NCBI GenBank assembly: GCA_965224085.1
Contig: CBDCYI010000011.1
Location: forward strand, 640,001 to 704,000
Origin: Candidatus Marinacidobacterales bacterium
Lineage (GTDB): Bacteria > Acidobacteriota > Vicinamibacteria > Marinacidobacterales > SMYC01
Length of the DNA stretch: 64,000 nucleotides
Reading direction: 5' to 3'
Shown here: piece after piece, positions 1,005 through 22,370 of the stretch
How positions within the stretch are numbered: position 1 is the first letter of the stretch
Layout of the letters: every line of letters starts with the position of its first letter
Made by a program: the position numbers and the translations under genes
Notes under the pieces: generated by a model
Databases searched by the model: none
Told to the model about the DNA's origin: nothing
The model's input: the letters and a program-made list of their open reading frames with translations, nothing else

Positions 1005-1658
1005 TCAAGCCGCGCGCAACGTGCGCACGGCATCCTCGGTGCTCACGACGGCATTGGCGAGAAAGCCGAAGTTGGTGAGCGCCGCGGTGTAGCCATCGCC
1101 GAGCTCGGGATGCTTCGCGGCCGCGGTGGCGTCCTTGACGACGGAGACCTCGAAGCCTTGCTCCAAGAGCTCGCGCAGGTGGCTCTCGAGGCACAGATTG
1201 GCCGACATCCCGCAGAGCAGCACTTTGGAGATGCCGCGTTTGCGAAGTTGCAGCACGAGGTCATTGCTCTCGGGCCCGTACACCTTGTGCGGACTCACGA
1301 TGACGGTGTTGCCGTCGTCGATGTAGGGCTTGTACACCTCGAGCCAATCTGCGCCCGACCCCTCAAGGCCATCGACCGAAAGGGCCCCGACGCGATCGAA
1401 CATCTTGATCTCGTGCATCATCTTTTCGACGGTGCCGCCGAACTGCCAGCCGTGATCGGTCGGGTAGTAGTAGTGAGGCGAAACGAAGACCTCGCAGCCG
1501 GACTGCTTCGCCGCCTTCAAAAGCGCCTCGATGTGCTCGACCGTCCCGTTCTCCCGAACGCTCTCGCCGACGAGGCCCCACGTGACCCCCGAGGGACTGA
1601 GAAAATCGTTCTGCGGATCGGTGATGACGAGCGCGGTTGCCTTCCGATTCGTGTCCAT
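1005..1658 (-). CDS. Isochorismatase-family cysteine hydrolase
   Basis: ALVITDPQNDF, HKVYGP and GMSANLCLESH motifs (D-K-C triad); AGGAGG RBS before ATG 1658. Confidence 0.9.
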   Translation of the reverse strand: MDTNRKATALVITDPQNDFLSPSGVTWGLVGESVRENGTVEHIEALLKAAKQSGCEVFVSPHYYYPTDHGWQFGGTVEKMMHEIKMFDRVGALSVDGLEGSGADWLEVYKPYIDDGNTVIVSPHKVYGPESNDLVLQLRKRGISKVLLCGMSANLCLESHLRELLEQGFEVSVVKDATAAAKHPELGDGYTAALTNFGFLANAVVSTEDAVRTLRAA

Positions 1659-1808
1659 GACTCTCCTCCTTGGTTTGATTGACACTCTTGTGCTTTCGAC
1701 CATGGGGATACTGTGCCGGCAAGCATGTGCGATAGGGTCCGGATGACGTGCTAAATCGTCTCGATCCCGCGTGTTGAAACTCCACCCGTATTCGCATAGC
1801 ATGGCCGC

Positions 1809-2003
1809 ATGCTACTGGAGCGCCTCTTCGAGAATTTGGCACTGTCCGTCGAGCCCTTCGCCACCTGCCGGGTGGCTCCTGGTTGGAGGCTCCGCCTCCC
1901 ACTCCGTGACTGGGTGATTCTCCACTTCGTTTTGCAGGGCGAGGGCCGAACAACGCTGGCCTGTCACGCTCTTTCCGCGCTTCGTGTCATTCCGATGAGC
2001 TAA
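1809..2003 (+). pseudogene. N-terminal cupin fragment of an AraC-type regulator, divergent from the isochorismatase gene
   Basis: LSVEPFATCRVAPGWRLRLP..WVILHFVLQGEG, then similarity is lost; no HTH domain. Confidence 0.6.
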
Positions 2004-2041
2004 AATCGATGTCGAAGAGGAGTTACCCGGTAACACGGACT

Positions 2042-2278
2042 GTGAGTAAGACTTCGGCGTTTCCGTGGACTTAGGGCCAAAAACTCTGGGTTCATGTCTG
2101 AAGGCGGCAACTAATCGGGGTCGTCCTCCTCGGAGTCGCACTCGGGCTAATAGCACCTTTTGTCGACAAGTGGACGGATAGTCGGTTGTGGTTCTGGCTG
2201 GTTATGACGTTGACGTTTCTTCCGTTGTTTGTGATTACCCATGCCGTGGCCGACTATATTGTACGGAAGTTGTTCTAA
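2042..2278 (+). pseudogene. Small two-TM membrane protein with two in-frame stops
   Basis: Manual translation gives VSKTSAFPWT*GQKLWVHV*RRQLIGVVLLGVALGLIAPF...LWFWLVMTLTFLPLFVITHAV. Both stops (TAG, TGA) are one change from TGG. Confidence 0.4.
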
Positions 2279-2359
2279 CTGGGCCGCTCACCTCCTGACG
2301 TTATTTCGGCGCTACGAAATCGCGTTACTGATGTCTTTCCGAAGAGAGGCGTTCCCGCG

Positions 2360-2665
2360 ATGAGTGCTATGCGAGATCTCGTTAATCCGAGATGGATGTA
2401 CCTAAAAGCCGCGCTGCTGCTCGTAATATTGCTCTCCTGCTGTGTCCTGCTCTTGGTGGAGGCGCCAAGTTGGCGCGCCGCTCTGTTGCTTGCTCTCGTC
2501 GTCTGGGCATCCGCACGACTTTACTATTTCATGTTCTACGTGATCGAACGATACTTTGATCGGTCTTATCGCTTTTCCGGGATCGCTTCTGCGCTGTGGC
2601 ACCTCCTGAGTCGAAGTGCGAACCGGCCGGTAAAAGAGGCGGTGTCAAAAAGACCGGACAAGTAG
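2360..2665 (+). CDS. Small membrane protein of unknown function
   Basis: Two hydrophobic helices followed by ARLYYFMFYVIERYFD..YRFSGI. Confidence 0.65.
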   Translation: MSAMRDLVNPRWMYLKAALLLVILLSCCVLLLVEAPSWRAALLLALVVWASARLYYFMFYVIERYFDRSYRFSGIASALWHLLSRSANRPVKEAVSKRPDK

Positions 2666-3079
2666 TCGCGATTCAGGAGTGAGCGGCGTGCGTCTTGAGA
2701 GCAGCAGCGCCCCCACCCGCCGCTAAGGCGCGCAGGGTCAACCGTACTTCGCCCGCCGGTACGTCTGGCTATCAAAGCGCCCCGGGATGCAACCCACCTA
2801 GTCACGCCACCTCCGTATGCCTCCACATCAAGCCGCTTAATGGAAAGAGGTATCTCGTCCTTTCTAGGCTTCGAACCCGTGGCACGCGGCCCGCTGGCCG
2901 GTCCCGTCAGTACGTCGTGTGGTACCATCCCGCCTCGGCACTCGCGAGTCCCAGCATACGCGGTCCCATGAGGGAGGGCGGGATCATGCGCTTCGTACGG
3001 CGACACAAGGCTTTTTTCGCCTGTTGCTAACGTTGTCGTCGTTTCGCTGATTCGCCTGCTTCTCCGCGCCGCGCCCGCT

Positions 3080-3255
3080 ACCATCGCGATCTCTACCGCA
3101 ACCAGGGGCGGGGCTCGGGCAGCAGCTCGCGCGCATCCTGGAAGATCTGCCTGACCAACCTTTCGAGCACGTTGATGTGATGCCCTCGGGCGGGACCCAG
3201 GAGAACATCGACAGGCTTCTCGATGGGGAGGCGGACGTAGCCTTCGCTCGCCGAT
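3080..3255 (+). pseudogene. TAXI-family TRAP solute-binding protein, N-terminal remnant
   Basis: Manual translation: IAISTATRG...LGQQLARILEDL...VDVMPSGGTQENIDRLLDGEADVAFA. Confidence 0.55.
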
Positions 3256-3397
3256 CCCAATCTGGACGAGGGGACACGGCGTGAGCGGCTCGGGGCGCTC
3301 GAGAAGCGCATCTGGAGCTCGCTGGAGACAGGAGCGCTGGATTCGTCGCAGCATGCGATGTTCGCAGCTCTGCTGGAATGTGCGCAAGAGCTGCCAG

Positions 3398-3729
3398 TTG
3401 ACGCACGTTCGTCAACAGCTTGTCGATGGCCTGCTTCTTCCTGGGTGGGACGTACAAAGAGCATTGATGTCTTTCTCGAGAAGACGCCCGACGCGGTTCT
3501 CTTTGCTCACGCGGCCGAACAAGGACGCGTGTTTGCGACAAACGACGAGCCTTTGAGAGTGAGAGCCGACCAATGGCTCACGGAAGGCAAATCGTTCAAA
3601 GGACTCGTCACCTGGAAGCTCAAGCTTCATGACCGCTTGAGGGACGGCTGGTTTATCGAAAGGTTCGAGAGACTCGCTGACGAGGACGACGCCTTCTCCT
3701 ATCCCATCCGATACCTTACTAAAGACTAA
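3398..3729 (+). pseudogene. DUF5615 PIN-like protein, frameshifted and 5'-damaged
   Basis: HVRQQLVDGL...GWDVQRA in one frame joins IDVF.EKTPDAVLFAHAAEQGRVFATND in the next frame. Confidence 0.6.
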
Positions 3730-3820
3730 CACTCATGCGAAGGGCCTCTCAGAACCGGTGTGGATCCGTAAGCACCAGCTCACCGTACGCCGATCAGAGG
3801 CTCGTGATTGAATGTTGGCG

Positions 3821-4900
3821 CTATTGCGGGCCGCCGCCATGAACCGTGAACTTCTGGACGCGCCGGCCGGTGGACGCTTCCCCCACGTAGAGGTTGCCCT
3901 GCGAGTCGGCGCTCATACCGTGGGGACGCAGGAACTGGCCTAACTGCCGCCCGCCGCGACCGAACTCACCCACCACCTCCAGGTCTTCCCGCCGGAGCGT
4001 CCAGACCTTGTGATTCGTGCCGTCCGCCATGTAGAGCCACCGTTGGTCGGGATCGGGCGACAGTGCGAAGACGAAGGCGGACCCGGAGGCCAAGGTGGCA
4101 GGTGCGACGATCTTCTCCGCGACGAACGCGCCGCTGTGGTCGAAAACCTGGATGCGGTTCGCGCGGCGATCCGCGACGTAGATCCGTCCGTCTTTTGACC
4201 CGATGATGCCGTGGACGGTCGAGAACTGGCGCGGGGGAAGACCCTCCGGATCGCGGTTTTGGTAGTCGTACTCCTCGTCGTCATCCGGCGTCTCGCCATA
4301 GGCGCCCCAGTGACGGAGGTATTTGCCCGTCTCGCCTTCATAGACCACCACCCGGCGATTCCTGTAACCGTCCGTCCGCGATATAGGCCTCGTTCGTTTC
4401 AGGGTCCACCCAGATCCCTGCCGGTCCGCCCAGGAAGTCGGGGTCGTTGCTCCCGGCGTTCTTGTCGTACTCACCGATGGTCATCACGTGCTCGCCGTTC
4501 GGGTGAACTTCATGACCCGATGATGCCTGAAGGTACCCACCCAAACGTAGTCGTTGTGATCCACGAAAATCCCATGAGGGTTCCGGGGATAGTGGGACAT
4601 ATCCTCGGAGGGCTCTCCCCAAGCCTGCACGACCTCGCCCTGCGGGTCGAGCTCGATCACCACCGGCGCCGGTGCGCAGCATGTGCCTATTGGCGGCTCC
4701 TGAACAGCGGATGTCTCTTCGGGGGTCAACGTTTCTGGAAGGTGTGCGACCCAGACATGGTCCTTGGAATCCACGAAGACGGCAATCACGGAGCCGAGAA
4801 TCCAGTTGTTGGGCATCTCCCGGGGCCAGGTGGGGTCGACCTCGAACGTGGGTACCCCTCCATCCGTAGAGACGACGGGCGCCTCTCCGTCGCCTCCGGT
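3821..4900 (-). pseudogene. NHL-repeat beta-propeller (PAL-like) protein, multiply frameshifted
   Basis: FEVDPTWP.EMPNNWILG, NPHGIFVD, ADGYRNRRVVV, YVADRRANRIQVFD and PHGMSADSQGNLYVGE are spread over three frames. Confidence 0.8.
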
Positions 4901-16589: not shown

Positions 16590-17092
16590 ACAACGTGGTA
16601 CTACGCTACCTTGACTGCGGGGTTCCAGAGGGAGGGGACCGGTGAAGCACGGCCGTTTCGCGATTCTGCCGCTACCGAGGGTGGGGCTCAGTTCTCACCA
16701 GATGGCCGCCTCCTGAGTTACGTGTCGGATGCGTCCGGCCAACGCGAGGTCTACGTCGCCGCCTACCCCGGACCCGGTGCGCTGTGGCAAGTCTCCACCG
16801 ATGGTGGAACGCAACCGGTCTGGAATCCTCGAGGCGGCGAGCTCTTCTACCGCGTGGACTTCCGGATGATGAGCGTGAAGGTCGGTGACTCTCCGGAGAC
16901 GACTCGAGGCCCGAGGTCGTGTTCGAGGGGGACTATTCGTACGGAGGAGCGCGCACGTTGCCCAGCTACGACGTTGCGGCCGACGGAGAACGATTCCTCA
17001 TGGTCAAGGACCTGTCCGCGAGTCGCGGGAACGTCCGTGTGGTGATCAACTGGTTTGAGGAGCTAAGGCGTCTCGTTCCAGCCGACCATTGA
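16590..17092 (+). pseudogene. C-terminal TolB-like fragment of another Ser/Thr kinase
   Basis: FSPDGRLLSYVSD.SGQREVYV, VSTDGGTQPVW; after a frameshift YDVAADGERFLMVK...VVINWFEELRRLVP. Confidence 0.8.
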
Positions 17093-17307
17093 GAGAATGT
17101 TTGTCGGTGGTGGTCAGAAAGGGAGCCAAAGTGGCGGGCCACGGGGACCGGTCCTGGCGCTGGTTAACGGCGGAAAAAAGGGAACCAGCTGCGACAGTGT
17201 CGCGACGTGAGCTAAAGTAGCGGGGCGTCCGCTAGCATAGAGACGCCTCGGAGAGGAACAAGCATTTCCTCTCCGAGACTTGAGCGTTCGGGAGTAAACC
17301 CACTCCC

Positions 17308-17798
17308 TTGGCCCCGCGACAAGATCCCCCAGCCCCAGCCAAAGATCAACCGCGTAGATCTGCGCAGAGCGGTCGAAGTCCGCGCAAGAGAAAGTGTTTG
17401 CTGAAGGGATGCGAGAAGTGGTTCCGCCCGGAGGAGGCGATGGAGCGGTATTGCGGTGAGAGCTGTCGGGAAGCGGCCCGGGCTTGGTCAGTGTTGAAGG
17501 CGCAGCACCGATATCGAAAAACGCAGAAGGGCAAAGAGAAACGTCGCGAGCAAAATCGTCGGCACCGACGACGTCGACAAGAACGACAAGAGGCGCGAAG
17601 TTCGGTTTCGGACGGCGTCGCGAGGGTGATCACCAGAGATTGTGGAGATTTTTTTTGTGTTGGTGTGATCGGCCCGGCTGCTATGAGTGGTTTTGCCGCA
17701 CGCGGCGGTCGCCGCTGCAGCGATTCTGCGCTAGAAGCTGCCGTCGAGCCGTGGAGAGAGTGCAAGAGCGTGAGAAGAAGTGGAAAAAGAGAAAGTAG
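17308..17798 (+). CDS. Basic double zinc-finger protein split by a -1 frameshift at a T8 run (start uncertain)
   Basis: Frame 0 has CLLKGCEKWF..ERYCGESC; the -1 frame has CDRPGCYEWF..QRFCARSC. The frames meet at T8, 17649-17656. Confidence 0.6.
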
Positions 17799-17967
17799 GC
17801 GAGAGAGTGAGTCGCGAAACTTGAAGCGAAGTTCGTCTGGACATATTGCCGAGAGCGAGAAGGGATCCTAAGGTGAGTTTGCCCGAGCAAGAAGAAGAGG
17901 GGATGCAGAGCACTTTGAGCTGTGCGTCCTCTCTTTTTCGATGGGGTTGTTTCTCGGAGCTAAGAAA

Positions 17968-18879
17968 ATGCTTTGCTGGTCGGAGGAAGTTCGCCTCGTT
18001 CCACTGGAAGATATCGGGGGTCACTACGCTCGATACCGTCTGTACTCGCCGGATGCCGAGCGAGCGATGTCGCGCTCGCTTCAGCGCTACGGGCAGCTAT
18101 CTCCTGTGGTGGTATGCGAGCGCTCGGGAAGACACGAGCTCATTGATGGATTCAAACGATTGGGAGCTGCACGCCAACTGGAAAGATTCGACAGACTCGA
18201 AGCTCGACTTCTGGAGGTGGACGAGCGAGGAGCGAAGGCGGCGATCTACGGGCTCAATCACGTTGGCGGTCGTACTCGAGAGCTCGAGGAGGCGTGGATC
18301 GTCCACGCCCTGGTGCGCGAAGACGGACTCACTCAGGTCGAAGTAGCCGAGCTATTGGGACGGCACAAAAGCTGGGTATGCCGTCGTCTGGCGCTCATCG
18401 AGAAACTCTGTGCCGAGGCTCGTGAGGAGCTTCGGGTCGGCTTATTGTCCGCCACCGCGGCGCGGCACTTGGTCCGGTTGCCCGAAGGCAACCAACCCCG
18501 GGTTTTGGAACTCATCCGCCGCGAAGCGCTTTCCACCGAGGAGCTCAGCCGGGTGGTGGACTTGTTGCTTCGCTCGGCCAATGCGACTGAGCAGCAATAC
18601 GTTCTTCACCAACCGCGCGAAGCGCTTTGTCAGTCAGACGGCGTTGAGCTTCCTCATCGGGACCCGAGGCTGAGCGTAGCCGGCAATCTGGTTTTCAAGC
18701 GCCTGGGCGCGCTGCTTGCCATGCTCTCGCGTATGGAGCAGTGGCTCCAGCATCAGGGTCGAAGCGGACTCACCGAGCAAGACCAAGCCTTTTTGTTTCC
18801 TCATTTCGCGAAACTCTCGCAAAGGGCTCAGCTGGTAGCAGGTCTAGCTCAGGATCTTGCCTCGGAGATGGGGCCATGA
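17968..18879 (+). CDS. ParB/RepB/Spo0J-like protein (ParB N-domain plus HTH)
   Basis: SLQRYGQLSPVVV, ELIDGFKR (GxxR) and HTH LTQVEVAELLGRHKSWVCRRLAL; ATGA overlap with istA. Confidence 0.9.
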   Translation: MLCWSEEVRLVPLEDIGGHYARYRLYSPDAERAMSRSLQRYGQLSPVVVCERSGRHELIDGFKRLGAARQLERFDRLEARLLEVDERGAKAAIYGLNHVGGRTRELEEAWIVHALVREDGLTQVEVAELLGRHKSWVCRRLALIEKLCAEAREELRVGLLSATAARHLVRLPEGNQPRVLELIRREALSTEELSRVVDLLLRSANATEQQYVLHQPREALCQSDGVELPHRDPRLSVAGNLVFKRLGALLAMLSRMEQWLQHQGRSGLTEQDQAFLFPHFAKLSQRAQLVAGLAQDLASEMGP

Positions 18880-20397
18880 ACGAGCGAACGCAAAACGAAG
18901 TCATCCGTTTGTTCTACACCAGAACCTCCCAGAGGCGGATCGCCAAGCTAGTCGGCATTAGTCGCAAGAGCGTCGCCAAGATTGTCGAAGCCCACCAGAA
19001 TCAAAGAGCGGGAATATCGGAACCCGCAAAATCAAAACGTCTCAGCTTGCTCGACTCCTTCGACGAAAAGCTCACCGAGCTTATCGAGCGCTATCCTGAT
19101 ATCACCGCCGTGAGACTACACGAGGAGCTGCGGCTTTCGGGCTTCACTGGCGGATACACCATCGTCAAAGAAAGACTCCGGCAGTTGCGCCCGAAGTCTC
19201 TCAAGCCCTTCGTCGAGCGTTTCGAAACCGGCCCGGGACTCCAGGCCCAGATGGACTACTCCATGTACCGCATCGACTTCACCGCCGAGGGGGCCCCGTA
19301 AGGTCTACGCATTCGGTTTGATCCTTGCCTTCTCTCGCCGTCAGTTCCTGCGCTTCGTGCAAAGCCAAGACCTACCCACCACCCTCAGAGAGCACCAGCG
19401 TGCCTTTGACTACTTTCAGGGAGTGCCCGCCACCTGCCTATACGACAACATGAAGGTGGTAGTGAGCGGTTTCGATGGCTCCCAACCCGTGTTCAATACC
19501 CGCTTTCTGGCCTTCGCTACCCACTACGGTTTTCAGCCACTTTTGTGTCGCCCCGCTCGGCCTCAAACCAAAGGCAAGGTCGAGAGACCCTTTCACTTCA
19601 TCGATAAAAATATCCTCAATGCACGTCGCTTCTCAGACTTGAACCATCTCAATGACGTCGCCGAACAATGGCTTGCCGAGGTCAGCGACAAGAGAGTTCA
19701 CCGTACCACCGGACAACCCCCCATCGACCGGTTTCAACAAGAACGCTCTCACCTGTTGGCTCTTCCCCACAAACCCTTCGATACCGCTGAAGTCCTCTAC
19801 CGCACCGTGGACGCCGAGGGATACGTCGCCTACCTGCAGAACTTCTACTCTGTTCCCTGGCAACGCACCGGCGAGTTTGTTCCGGTGCGAATCACCGACA
19901 ACGAGCTCGTCGTCTACGCTCCCAATATCAAGGAGATCGCGCGCCACAAACTCTTCGCTCGGTCGGTCTCGGACGAAAAAGCCACAGAGCAAAGCCATCG
20001 ATCCCCGCACTCGCTCAAGCAGCGCATCGAAGTACTCCGAAAACGCTTTGCCGAGTTCGGTGCCCTCGGAGAACGCTTTTTCGACGAACTGCTCCGCAAT
20101 CGGCGATTCGGCAAAGATGAAGCTCTCCGAATCCTCGCCCTTCACGCCTTTTATCGCTTCGACGACCTCAAGACTGCACTGGAGAGGGCCACTCGATACC
20201 GTGCCTTTTCCCGTTCTGCCATCGAGCGCATCCTCGCGGCTCAGGCTCAGCCCAAAACCACTTTCGAGTCTTTGAGTGAAACTGCACGACAAAGCCTCGA
20301 CGAGCTTCTGCGAAAACCCGCCGTGTCACCGCGGCCCGCATCCGAGTACCAACAACTGCTTGACGGATCTAAAACCGATGACGACGAACCACAATAA
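18876..20397 (+). CDS. istA: IS21 transposase IstA with a 1-nt frameshift in a G5 run near 19290
   Basis: GFTGGYTIVK, RFET.PGLQAQMD, LYDNMK and PQTKGKVER motifs. Removing one G gives EGPRKVYAFGLIL in frame. Confidence 0.9.
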
Positions 20398-21214
20398 ATC
20401 CAAGAGCCCCGATGAGCTCCGCGAGCGTTGTCTTGCTCACTTTGCCACCTTGAACATCCCCTTGCGCTCAGCTCAGCTCGACCAAGCCCTCGAAAAAGCT
20501 GACCACGATGCACTCTCTCACCTTGCTTTTCTCGAAAATCTCATCGGACACCAGGTCGACCAACGCCGTGAACGCTCCACCGAGCGACGCATTCGCCAAG
20601 TCAGATTCCAAGAACGAAAAACTCTCGAGACTTTCGACTGGAAGTTCAATCCAAAGGCTTTCGACAAATTACAGATCGAACAGCTCGCCTCCGCCGATTT
20701 CATTCGCCGACGCGCTAACTTGATTTTCGTCGGTCAATCCGGGGTGGGTAAATCTCACATCATGCAGGCCATCGGCATCAGGGCTTGCGCCCTGGGCTTT
20801 CGTCCCCTTGACCGAACCTCCGCCGATCTCATCGCCGATCTTACCGCCTCGCTCGCCGACAAAACTCTTCCTCAAAAACTCCGCCGATATAAAAGCCCCG
20901 ACCTGCTCATCATCGACGAGTTCGGCTTCGACAGAATCGAACGCTCCGAATGCCCCGAAGCCGCACATCTCCTCTACAAGATCATCGCTGCCCGACATCA
21001 GTACCGTTCCACCGCCCTCGTTACCAACGTCGACTTCGAAAAGTGGGCCGACTATCTCGCCGACGGACCCCTCGCCATGGCCTTTCTCGACATACTCGTT
21101 GAGGGCGCCATCATCCTCAAAATCAACGGCAAGTCCTTCCGCGCTCGGAGATCTCATACCGCCCACGCTAAAGACACTTCTTCTGACTCTCCTCGTTCCA
21201 CCACGCAACCGTAA
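20378..21214 (+). CDS. istB: IS21 helper AAA+ ATPase IstB
   Basis: KTLETFDW, Walker A GQSGVGKS, Walker B LLIIDEFG and GKSFR. Confidence 0.95.
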   Translation: MTTNHNKSKSPDELRERCLAHFATLNIPLRSAQLDQALEKADHDALSHLAFLENLIGHQVDQRRERSTERRIRQVRFQERKTLETFDWKFNPKAFDKLQIEQLASADFIRRRANLIFVGQSGVGKSHIMQAIGIRACALGFRPLDRTSADLIADLTASLADKTLPQKLRRYKSPDLLIIDEFGFDRIERSECPEAAHLLYKIIAARHQYRSTALVTNVDFEKWADYLADGPLAMAFLDILVEGAIILKINGKSFRARRSHTAHAKDTSSDSPRSTTQP

Positions 21215-21335
21215 GCCTGGATACCTTCCCGCCGCCACTTTGGCCTCCTTTTTCAACGCCACCGATAGAATGTTGGCACCACGTTGGCTTTTTCGTGGCG
21301 TCGGGGTTGGTTTGGCTCCGGGCTGCGAGCGCGAC

Positions 21336-22370
21336 TTACTGATACCCATGGTATCGACGACCGTCGGGCTGGTCGGCGGGCGGCTCCGGTCGTTGATAGC
21401 GGCCCGACTCCTGGTCGAACCATCGTTTGGTCAGCGCGTCGCCATAGGCTCCGAAGATCTCATCCGCATCGCCCCTGCTCCGAAGGACTTCCTGTAGCAC
21501 GCCCACGTACCCGATCGCGGCCAGTCCGACGATCTCGATAGTCCGTCGTACGCCTCGCGCATGTCGTTCGTCACGAAAGTGAACGTGTCATCGTGATAGT
21601 CGATACCGGGAATTCCAGCGAGGGATCGCAGGCTTGCCGGGGGCACGGCGTGCAGTGACGCGTAGATCGGGGTTGAGATCTTCATCACTTTCGCGGACGC
21701 CATGTTCTGAACGGCCCGTCTCGCGCCTTCGCGGAGTGCCGCCCGGGCCTCATTCACGGGGCGGGGAATCGTGTCGTCTGCGGCGGTCGCTTCCTTCACG
21801 GTCACGAACTCGATCCACGGCATCGTTTCGAGGTCGGCGGCGAGCCGGTCGTCTCCCGAGGCGAAGATCACCGGAACGCCCACACGTCCCCAGGAGAGGG
21901 CACCCAGCTCCGTTTCGGTGATGGATTGACCATTGATGAGTAGATCGACCCCGAGCGTGAACGTGTGCGATGCAAAGCCACCGCTCCCGGTCTTCGCATG
22001 CATTCCCACCACCGCCACGGCGTCGATTTCTTCCGATTCCGGGAGATCGAAATACGTGTCGTAGGGTTCGTCCCGGATGAGCTGGGTAGCCCGCTCGTCC
22101 AGGAGGTCCCGCCTAAAGTCGGGGTCCGGATTGCCGCTCCCGTGTCCGTCGGCGATGACCACCTCCGTCGCACCGCCGGCGAACAGCCCGTCCGCCACCG
22201 CATTCACGTCGGCGGCGAGCCATTCCTGCCCCGTGGGATACATCTCGGTACCGAAGTCGAACGAGCTGGGATCGCTCTGGCCCGCGAGGCCTTCCATATC
22301 GTGGATGATGAGAACCCGGATGCCGTTTTCCGAACGCGGTGTGAAGTCGGCGAGGGTCCACGCCCTTATT
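21336..22370 (-). pseudogene. M55 D-aminopeptidase (DppA-like), 5'-truncated with a 3' frameshift
   Basis: DMEG, ADGHGSG, VGMHAK..G..SHT and SGDD motifs; no start codon before the IS-end-like sequence at 22433. Confidence 0.8.

Follow-up and report, generated by a model that had tools for sequence, protein, structure and literature searches.

The locus described here raises the question of why an insertion sequence of the IS21 family should hold two genes besides its transposase and helper genes, and whether these are baggage or part of the working machinery. It lies in a 64,000-nt stretch of DNA (the window, in whose numbering all coordinates are given) from contig CBDCYI010000011.1 of assembly GCA_965224085.1, Candidatus Marinacidobacterales bacterium. 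The element runs from 17102 (TGTCGG...) to 21267 (...CCGATA), limits set by alignment with relatives, and encodes a zinc-ribbon protein, a ParB-like protein, IstA, and IstB, in that order and all on the plus strand. Because four genes lie inside its repeats, compared to two (istA and istB) in canonical IS21, we file it as an IS21 variant subgroup and not as a canonical member. The explanation that we favor overall, and consider on balance probable, is an apparently undescribed IS21 subgroup with an integral ParB-like protein and a recoded zinc-ribbon gene, both serving a regulatory role.

A large IS21 subgroup with four genes

Relatives of the ParB-like protein are numerous. Among 8000 proteins scored, 5213 matched at an E value of ≤1e-3, and 345 representatives at ≤1e-30 remained after clustering at 50%. 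The best 120 are about 305 amino acids (aa) long, are mostly 60 to 73% identical to the window's protein, and often lie on contigs of 4.2 to 4.4 kb. ParB-relative loci number 409 in contigs of one genome per species and at least 578 in metagenomes; the linkage counts that follow come from the best 80 of the former and from 80 of the latter. IstA follows ParB in every genome locus with at least 450 nt of downstream sequence (74/74), and the zinc-ribbon gene precedes it in every locus with at least 650 nt upstream (74/74). IstB lies downstream in 54 of the 56 loci with at least 2.5 kb, the exceptions (L050 and L060) being cut short. The independent metagenome set gave 67/68 for IstA and 71/73 for the zinc-ribbon gene. 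In 72 of 78 loci, the stop codon of parB and the start of istA share 4 nt (ATGA in 68, GTGA in 4); the remaining 6 have a longer overlap, of 86 to 92 nt. Pairwise distances of ParB and IstA across 30 elements are closely correlated (Mantel r = 0.893, with 0 of 2000 permutations as high), a test that is inflated by the relatedness of the sequences but in which the effect size is clear all the same. Conservation is stronger in ParB (mean distance of 0.212) than in IstA (0.271).

All 28 complete elements have TGT...CA ends and measure 4150 to 4343 bp. Flanks are available for 26 of them. Nine of these show an exact target duplication of 6 to 9 bp, another shows one of 7 bp with a single mismatch, and the other 16 show no duplication. 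The ten exact target duplications, nine from relatives and one from the window, have no common sequence. One 9.9-Mb genome (that of L034) holds five identical copies. The four-gene unit is what transposes, and the element in the window belongs to a large IS21 subgroup, of approximately 4.15 to 4.35 kb, that has apparently not been described.

The boundaries of the window copy are equally clear. An earlier note on this DNA had placed inverted repeats and a 7-bp target duplication around the four genes, and this was borne out: a 34-nt inverted pair (17104-17137 and 21232-21265, 82% complementary) is the longest within 16800-21600, and GAATGTT stands on both sides, at 17095-17101 and 21268-21274. 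The left terminal repeat (17102-17137, plus strand) starts TGTCGG, where relatives begin TGTTAGCGGCGG..., and is followed at ~17181-17194 (plus strand) by an internal repeat resembling the left terminus, GGGAACCAGCTGCG. The right terminal repeat (21232-21267, minus strand) ends in TA, compared to CA in 28/28 complete relatives. The right boundary is fixed by a second, truncated copy in the source genome, which stops at the identical base on that side but has another flanking sequence.

The main alternative to an integral role is that the extra genes are passengers, that is, cargo or selfish hitchhikers such as a remnant partition gene acquired once. The accessible portion of the literature describes IS21 elements that transpose with IstA and IstB alone, and IS21 loci without ParB are among the near relatives by IstA. 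In the window's phylum, 93 of 401 genomes (including unpublished G049) have an IstA match at an E value of ≤1e-10, and the 19 next-best IstA loci (29 to 41% identity), 15 of which have enough upstream DNA to judge, hold neither the zinc-ribbon nor the ParB gene in tblastn and profile searches; these nearest ParB-less loci manage without ParB. The two genes are, moreover, found separately in some clades. Against this stands the fact that cargo is normally variable, whereas here we find presence in 74/74 loci, a fixed order, the overlap in 72/78, and r = 0.89, with stronger purifying selection on ParB than on IstA and an arrangement kept across families in which IstA is only about 30% identical. 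Nor is there a ParA or a plasmid context: the open reading frame (ORF) list of the window has nothing beyond the four genes within the element, hence no ParA gene, and a tblastn search of 72,556 plasmids returned no close ParB relative (6 records matched, all partial and at <33% identity). We therefore regard the passenger explanation as very unlikely. The earlier note had inferred that parB is not cargo, and this stood up in two ways: every IstA of >55% identity carries ParB, including that of the one genome besides the source with a close match (56% identity, with both the zinc-ribbon gene and ParB), compared to the 19 without it at 29 to 41%, and the distances of ParB and IstA are correlated as described above. 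The sequence comparisons thus support the view that ParB belongs to the element as an integral component and is inherited together with it.

The association extends to distant relatives. A profile of 46 diverse ParB-like proteins, searched over 301 genomes of the same phylum, matched in 25 at an E value of ≤1e-25 (including unpublished G454). All seven full-length distant matches examined are followed by IstA and IstB, and all seven partial matches, which cover only the N-domain and the helix-turn-helix (HTH) and resemble canonical ParB, are not. In a quickly computed IstA tree with 33 rows, ParB-bearing elements form two strongly supported clades and one long branch, and the label requires 2 changes versus 8.5 when shuffled; the deep nodes are not separated, and the tree is compatible with one or several gains of ParB.

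One distant family (family 2; L107:3565-7462, also L108, L109, and L121) is represented by five identical copies in the 9.9-Mb genome of L034. Its ParB, IstA, and IstB are 35, 31, and 32% identical to those of the window, and it has the same order of a zinc-ribbon gene (with a +1 shift), ParB, IstA, and IstB. Its 368-aa ParB has a long tail of low complexity that overlaps istA, and istB is followed by a fifth conserved ORF of 111 aa without a Pfam match. A ParB-less locus in another IS21 clade (L088:2456-3536, minus strand; IstA encoded by a 628-aa ORF and 34% identical) has a two-frame zinc-ribbon gene and, in the place of ParB, a 116-aa ORF whose product looks like a winged-helix-like protein. 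Judged from these gene arrangements, the zinc-ribbon and ParB genes behave as separable modules across IS21 clades, and it seems that the slot upstream of istA needs a DNA binder, which different clades supply differently.

The best 80 genome loci belong mostly to metagenome-assembled genomes (MAGs) of Acidobacteriota (Bryobacteraceae and Terriglobia). A few are labeled Verrucomicrobia, Planctomycetaceae, Gemmatimonadaceae, Chloroflexota, or Acetobacteraceae, and one comes from a Bathyarchaeia bin. In this last case (L042), the whole 4355-bp contig is one complete element, and its placement in a Bathyarchaeia MAG is more likely an artifact of binning, given its repeat-length size, than a sign of an archaeal host. 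At L038 and L062 the target duplications (GTTAGT and TGCCGAC) resemble the ends of the element (TGTTAG.. and ..CCGACA), which may reflect chance or a preference for end-like targets. Some copies stand tail to tail (L051/L062 and L068/L045). A composite transposon was considered for these pairs and ruled out, as their spacers are unrelated. The 1.3-kb spacer at L051:4251-5579 contains fragments like OrfA and OrfB of the IS3 family, and that at L068:8704-10366 contains a CRISPR array of 23 repeats (36 nt, AATTCCGCGAGCGCGCGCTCGCGGCCTCATTGAAGC, period of ~72), with the right end of one element copy ~15 nt from the last CRISPR spacer.

The copy in the window sits between convergent host genes; the stop of the upstream neighbor is at 17092, leaving a gap of 3 nt, and the downstream neighbor, on the opposite strand, is an M55 D-aminopeptidase gene. 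Its istB (20378-21214, plus strand) is intact and encodes the AAA+ helper ATPase (IstB_IS21, 168 bits, cut-off of 24.1; NF038214, 193.5 bits, slightly below the cut-off of 200). Its istA (plus strand) is interrupted. The N-terminal part (18876-19301), which covers positions 7-124 of NF033546, ends at a premature TAA (19299-19301), and reading resumes in the +1 frame (19285-20397) with the catalytic and C-terminal parts (rve, 44 bits; Mu-transpos_C_2, 49 bits); both halves match NF033546 (82.8 and 183.2 bits, cut-off of 160). The break is due to one extra G in a run of five (19289-19293, plus strand), as a related copy from a brine metagenome (run X10) lacks one letter at 19289 and has the frame restored. 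Uninterrupted istA genes of 511 to 523 codons occur in 37 loci with distinct ParB, a count confined to frames of 490 to 540 codons and thus excluding interrupted relatives, of which L012, L025, L064, and L078 are examples. Contigs from three studies (runs X1, X5, and X6, one of which may be the window's own source) match 17258-19928 without difference or gap; thus, the extra G and a run of eight T's in the zinc-ribbon gene are real in this strain. With istA split, a TA end, and a T run one T over the norm, the window copy is dead or crippled, having been disabled recently. The earlier note had described parB as translationally coupled to istA; the overlap is indeed present (ATGA at 18876-18879, the TGA of parB occupying 18877-18879 and the ATG of istA 18876-18878), but because istA is broken, nothing is coupled to a working transposase in this copy.

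We found no intact or other full copy elsewhere in the source genome (6.87 Mb, 12 contigs). It does hold a remnant at C4:1864491-1865963 (locus L002 ~1500-2975, minus strand), in which element positions 103-207 are joined to 2798-4166; the left end and positions 208-2797 are missing, the TA right terminus is shared, and the joint recurs in contigs of runs X1, X5, and X6. Older scraps, two IstA C-terminal fragments in opposite orientations and ~50% identical, lie at C5:704576-705060, and a solitary ORF for the first zinc half (102 aa, scoring 39 bits against the zinc-ribbon profile) lies at C9:861514-861820.

The frame junction of the zinc-ribbon gene

The second unusual aspect of the element is that its first gene is divided between two reading frames. 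The gene starts at TTG 17308-17310. Frame A (17308-17658, plus strand) encodes the first Cys motif, a basic helix, and ARVIT up to a run of T's, with an N terminus resembling NinG (24.6 bits, below the cut-off of 25.4), and frame B (17646-17798, plus strand; stop TAG at 17796-17798) encodes the second Cys motif, CDRPGCY..FCARSC. They meet at the run of eight T's (T8; 17649-17656, plus strand) that was seen in contigs of three studies, where a -1 shift is needed (T_TTT_TTT). Across the family, the protein is ~160 aa long and consists of two zinc-ribbon-plus-helix repeats: the first half has CLLKGC..F..YC..C, a long basic helix, and ...ARVIT..FF, and the second, in the other frame, has CDRPGCY..F..FCS..CRRA... 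The family-norm junction is T6 or T7 followed by CGA or TGA and needs a +1 shift: frame A reads ...GCG AGG GTN ATC ACN NNN NNN TTT TTT CGA, with the stop codon TGA last in some elements, and continues in the +1 frame as T TTT TTC GAN.

This geometry is conserved. Counted from fixed anchors, the 67 unique junctions of the genome loci comprise 54 that need +1, 9 that need -1/+2 (among them the window, with its T8), and 4 that need none, and the 56 unique junctions of the metagenome loci divide into 54, 2, and 0. A tblastn-based count over the 78 genome loci, duplicates included, gave 65, 10, and 3. Among those needing no shift by the anchor count, L023 is genuinely in frame; L078, L080, and L081 form a sub-clade in which the 14-nt anchor motif lies in the second frame. 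Frame A ends 9 to 19 codons past the motif in 36 of 54 junctions, and frame B lacks a start codon at this point, with TAA often just upstream. The codons at the junction are minority ones in these elements, where TTT makes up 30% of Phe and CGA 7% of Arg codons; the invariant AGG of the 14-nt motif makes up 3% of Arg codons. Furthermore, both motifs stand in a single frame in 66 or more of the top 120 database matches; in these natural fusions, the spacing at the junction (e.g., ARVITKDFFDHCCDR) is exactly that of the predicted +1 product. The +1 site is kept in family 2, despite an IstA identity of 31%, and in the ParB-less L088, where CTT TTT CGC is read on as TTT TTC GCC. The comparisons argue strongly that the split gene is subject to programmed recoding at the U run, by +1 frameshifting or by transcriptional slippage.

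It could instead be that the gene is not recoded at all, and that the T run is a phase-variation tract, that the second half is dead, or that the junctions contain sequencing errors. The T-run length does vary from 6 to 9, three frame states and in-frame versions exist, and many loci come from long-read MAGs. However, 108 of the 123 unique junctions, drawn from two collections and mostly from short-read contigs, show the same +1 geometry, and the +1 state is shared by all five of the identical copies in one genome, whose identity speaks for recent activity. T7 derives from substitution of the preceding base and not from insertion, the second half is conserved as strongly as the first, and the T8 of the window is confirmed in three studies. 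We consider the absence of recoding improbable.

An AlphaFold model of a natural zinc-ribbon fusion (predicted local distance difference test [pLDDT] of 79.7) has two units of a zinc knuckle plus a helix. It has no Foldseek match in the PDB at an E value of ≤0.001; among the weak matches, eL24-type, YacG, and FCS fingers ranked highest. A wide VIA-align search gave Z scores of <5 and long-helix matches only, the Atlas gave a NinG-like lead alone (0.87), and no Pfam family matched save zf-CGNR and NinG, both below threshold.

Several nucleotide signals accompany the gene. Upstream, a hairpin with a perfect 12-bp stem (CTCGGAGAGGAA/TTCCTCTCCGAG) and a 7-nt loop (17247-17277, plus strand) is kept. 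A second hairpin (17290-17310, plus strand), in which GGGAG (17290-17294) pairs with CTCCC (17303-17307), adjoins the TTG start and occludes it. Its closing pair varies in step with the initial nucleotide of that codon, being U-A in 21 and C-G in 6 of 35 sequences, and an outer helix has C-G to U-A changes in four sequences, a pattern that fits translational throttling of the zinc-ribbon gene. Within the coding sequence, an invariant 14-nt motif, GCGAGGGTGATCAC (17620-17633, plus strand; family form GCG[A/T]GGGTNATCAC), includes the rare Arg codon AGG. It occurs once per element in all 78 loci that hold the zinc-ribbon region and is the sole invariant nonterminal motif. The window's version, GGTGATCACC, is a 10-bp palindrome, whereas the family consensus is not palindromic. 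The fixed rare codons and the presence of the motif in the other frame in one sub-clade point to a role at the nucleotide level. Outside the element, GGGTNATCAC is not enriched in the 64-kb window (9 matches versus 10.7 expected).

The ParB-like protein and how it may act

The ParB-like gene (17968-18879, plus strand; 303 codons) starts at ATG 17968, the Met of "MLRW," as in relatives; a longer reading of the ORF covers 17941-18879. Its product has a ParB/Srx-like N-domain with the motif DGFKR, a ParB HTH, and a two-helix C-terminal domain. The motif is invariant in 23/23 relatives, and its D, G, and R are invariant in 46/46. HTH_ParB matches with 41.4 bits (cut-off of 22.6) and the KorB domain with 24.2 bits (cut-off of 22.3); Pfam ParB_N stays below its cut-off (17 to 19 versus 26.3 bits), and nucleoid_noc matches at an E value of 7.6e-17, yet far below the model cut-off. 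In an AlphaFold model (pLDDT of 75.5), the last ~100 residues form two long helices. Foldseek gives a probability of 1.00 to 7bnr, 7nfu, 6sdk, and 8qa9; the top matches are ParB-CTP, Noc, and KorB, with Spo0J also among the matches. A profile comparison with Myxococcus xanthus ParB (MxParB; 7o0n) gives an E value of 9e-22 over positions 7-204, i.e., the N-domain and HTH. From profile and model together, it is well supported that the protein is a DNA binder with a ParB fold and an HTH.

The earlier note called it a CTPase with an intact motif and HTH. The motif and the HTH are as described, but the "CTPase" label is not supported, because the residues at both catalytic positions of MxParB are replaced: in the alignment, box II (GERRWRA) corresponds to DGFKRL(R/G)A and box III (ENLQR) to (L)N(R)xx, while Q52 (the Q of DQPR) faces a variable residue and E93 faces Phe. 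According to the accessible part of a preprint on MxParB (bioRxiv 10.1101/2021.05.05.442810), Q52 and E93 are catalytic, and their Ala variants bind nucleotide, close, and stay on DNA much longer; R95 and R130 are needed for nucleotide binding, and R54, R94, E126, and N127 are needed for ring closure. The family has invariant R24, G61, R64, and N97 at the positions of MxParB R54, G92, R95, and N127 and a conservative change (K63) at R94. Equivalents of Q52, E93, E126, and R130 are lost, and of box II only the G, K/R, and R remain.

These residues bear on a second alternative, in which the protein is a CTP-dependent sliding clamp that would load within or close to the ends, slide, and act directly, in target choice or exclusion (immunity) or in synapsis of the ends with IstA and IstB. 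ParB-CTP structures are its best fold and profile matches, and the invariant R24, G61, R64, and N97 align with residues described, in the part of the MxParB work that is accessible, as binding nucleotide or closing the ring. In that same text, MxParB that has lost catalysis can still close and remains on DNA for longer, so the loss of Q52 and E93 is compatible with a long-lived clamp. The coupling to IstA (72/78) and the stronger conservation of ParB relative to IstA would also suit a direct part in transposition. In contrast, the equivalents of E126 and R130 are not kept, no loading site was found in the element, and the ten exact duplications share no sequence. Copies lie 1.3 to 2 kb apart tail to tail, with three within 40 kb, which argues against strong immunity, and the winged-helix-like ORF in the ParB slot of L088 suggests the need for a DNA binder and not for a clamp. 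A directly acting clamp is possible but, in our opinion, rather unlikely.

As a specific mechanism, we tentatively prefer that the ParB-like protein is a regulator or architectural binder within its own element, which we find plausible though short of probable. The protein would be a site-specific HTH binder of the KorB, VirB, or Noc type, either a nucleotide-locked clamp or a plain binder, that sets expression of parB-istAB from a promoter-like site and/or occupies the donor DNA or the ends. A candidate site, TTGCCG-N17-TAAGGT (17846-17874, plus strand; TTGA[C/T]C-N17-TACATT in relatives), lies in the spacer between the zinc-ribbon gene and parB. Through translational coupling, IstA would be made solely together with the ParB-like protein, in cis. 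In the zinc-ribbon gene, for which the case for recoding is strong, UUU_UUU_CGA or UUU_UUU_UGA would be read on in the +1 frame as UUU_UUC_GA, either because the P-site tRNA-Phe slips from UUU to UUC/UUU over a slow A-site CGA or stop or because RNA polymerase slips and drops one U. From each element, a short form with one ribbon and a long form with two would thereby arise at a set ratio, with translation of the gene further throttled by the hairpin at the start codon, and these isoforms may modulate end binding in the manner of the OrfA/InsA-type short products of IS3/IS1. The combined effect would be infrequent transposition that depends on the state of the element itself.

In the interval from the promoter-like site to parB (17870-17967), the window also contains a purine-rich stretch, AAGAAGAAGAGGGGA, and its complement, TCCTCTCTTTTTC; relatives with long spacers (L008, L010, L016, and L020) keep this type of pairing. 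It may form a second translational hairpin before parB.

Several observations weigh against the explanation that we favor. On the side of ParB, the loss of catalytic residues rests on an alignment at 22 to 24% identity, and no palindromic loading site of the parS, NBS, or OB type was recognized in the element. The 14-nt motif is a quasi-palindrome, lies within coding DNA, and encodes a peptide (ARVI) that is itself conserved. The promoter-like site of the window fails a simple consensus scan, and that of the family is a resemblance to consensus. As for recoding, L078, L080, and L081 still need a shift by homology, but a different one, and the existence of in-frame forms means that recoding is not universal and leaves room for a homopolymer on/off switch. 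RNAalifold on 30 sequences found no conserved RNA structure at the shift site, giving a 5-pair helix within the Cys motif alone and without compensatory change. The Shine-Dalgarno (SD)-like GAGGG lies ~17 nt upstream of the shift site, and in known stimulators of +1 shifts the SD-like element is nearer; T6, for its part, is short for efficient polymerase slippage. Finally, the two accessory proteins need not act together, because ParB-bearing elements L117-L119 and L123 have no zinc-ribbon gene within ~2 kb upstream.

A more far-reaching version, which we think unlikely, is that a nonhydrolyzing ParB, made in cis with IstA through coupling, is an obligatory third subunit, a long-lived clamp that loads on the DNA of the element and marks the donor or its surroundings so that IstB and IstA can tell self from target, tuned by a zinc-ribbon partner whose long and short forms are set by programmed +1 frameshifting. 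If true, such clamp-based self-recognition or immunity of a transposon would have no described counterpart.

Known systems and the slot upstream of istA

IS21 is a structural model for AAA+-controlled transposases and is thought to need IstA and IstB alone; its canonical members are ~2 to 2.7 kb long. The element resembles canonical IS21 (IS21 and IS5376) in the HTH, rve, and Mu-transposase C-terminal domains of IstA, in an overlapping downstream IstB, and in the subterminal repeats, target duplications of 4 to 8 bp, and TG..CA ends (in the family, the right end of the window copy being TA). It differs in its length of ~4.2 kb, in two further conserved genes inside the repeats, in the recoding of the first gene, in the coupling of istA to an upstream gene, and in an IstA that is at most 42% identical to that of the nearest two-gene elements sampled.

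Like KorB (RK2), VirB (Shigella), and Noc, the ParB-like protein combines a ParB/Srx N-domain with an HTH and has no ParA partner, and KorB and VirB, according to the accessible sources, are likewise carried by mobile elements. Unlike in those proteins, the catalytic, E126, and R130 positions differ here, the C-terminal domain is a two-helix hairpin, and the gene lies in a transposase operon. ParABS partition systems differ in having a ParA partner, whereas the neighbors here are always the zinc-ribbon gene and IstA.

The arrangement of the zinc-ribbon gene has a likeness to that of TniQ/TnsD in Tn7-like elements and Tn5053, where the genes of a Mu-like DDE transposase and an AAA+ regulator are accompanied by that of a zinc-finger DNA-binding accessory protein; the likeness is one of arrangement only, and no sequence or fold similarity was found for the zinc-ribbon protein. 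In prfB (RF2), a +1 frameshift occurs at CUU_UGA with an SD-like element 3 nt upstream. In the TGA variants described here, the P-site UUU can similarly re-pair in the +1 frame over an A-site stop, with SD-like GAGGG upstream, but the codon is mostly CGA and not a stop, the SD-like element is ~17 nt upstream, and no autoregulatory logic is evident. Comparable cases are IS1/IS3, with a short regulator and a long product made by programmed frameshifting, and IS1447; in these, two frames of the first gene are connected at a homopolymer or slippery site and, in the accessible text of Baranov et al. (2005), two products arise in a set ratio; IS1447 is described, in the portion of its source available, as shifting +1 by transcriptional slippage on seven A's. 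Here, in contrast, the recoded gene encodes an accessory zinc protein and not the transposase, and the +1 shift occurs at a U run before CGA or UGA.

In the literature that we searched, neither ParB-like or zinc genes nor recoding is mentioned for IS21, although an unpublished ISfinder or TnCentral entry may exist. A study of mobile elements of Acidobacteria (PMC3469429) has IS21 in a reference only, the available portion of PMC7371123 describes no such element, and the accessible part of the recoding review of Atkins et al. (2016) does not mention IS21.

The subgroup is a very abundant lineage of soil and sediment, with thousands of protein clusters, mostly in Acidobacteriota, in which two extra proteins are conserved like the transposase. 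It offers a natural case of a ParB-fold protein outside partition and within a transposon operon, together with a conserved, probable +1 recoding site at a U run outside the usual bacterial models, of which none is on record for IS21 in the literature searched. It also draws attention to what may be an accessory DNA-binder slot upstream of istA, filled differently by different IS21 clades. In current annotation, the label "ParB/Spo0J partition protein," together with hypothetical fragments, mislabels this mobile DNA as chromosome-partition genes.

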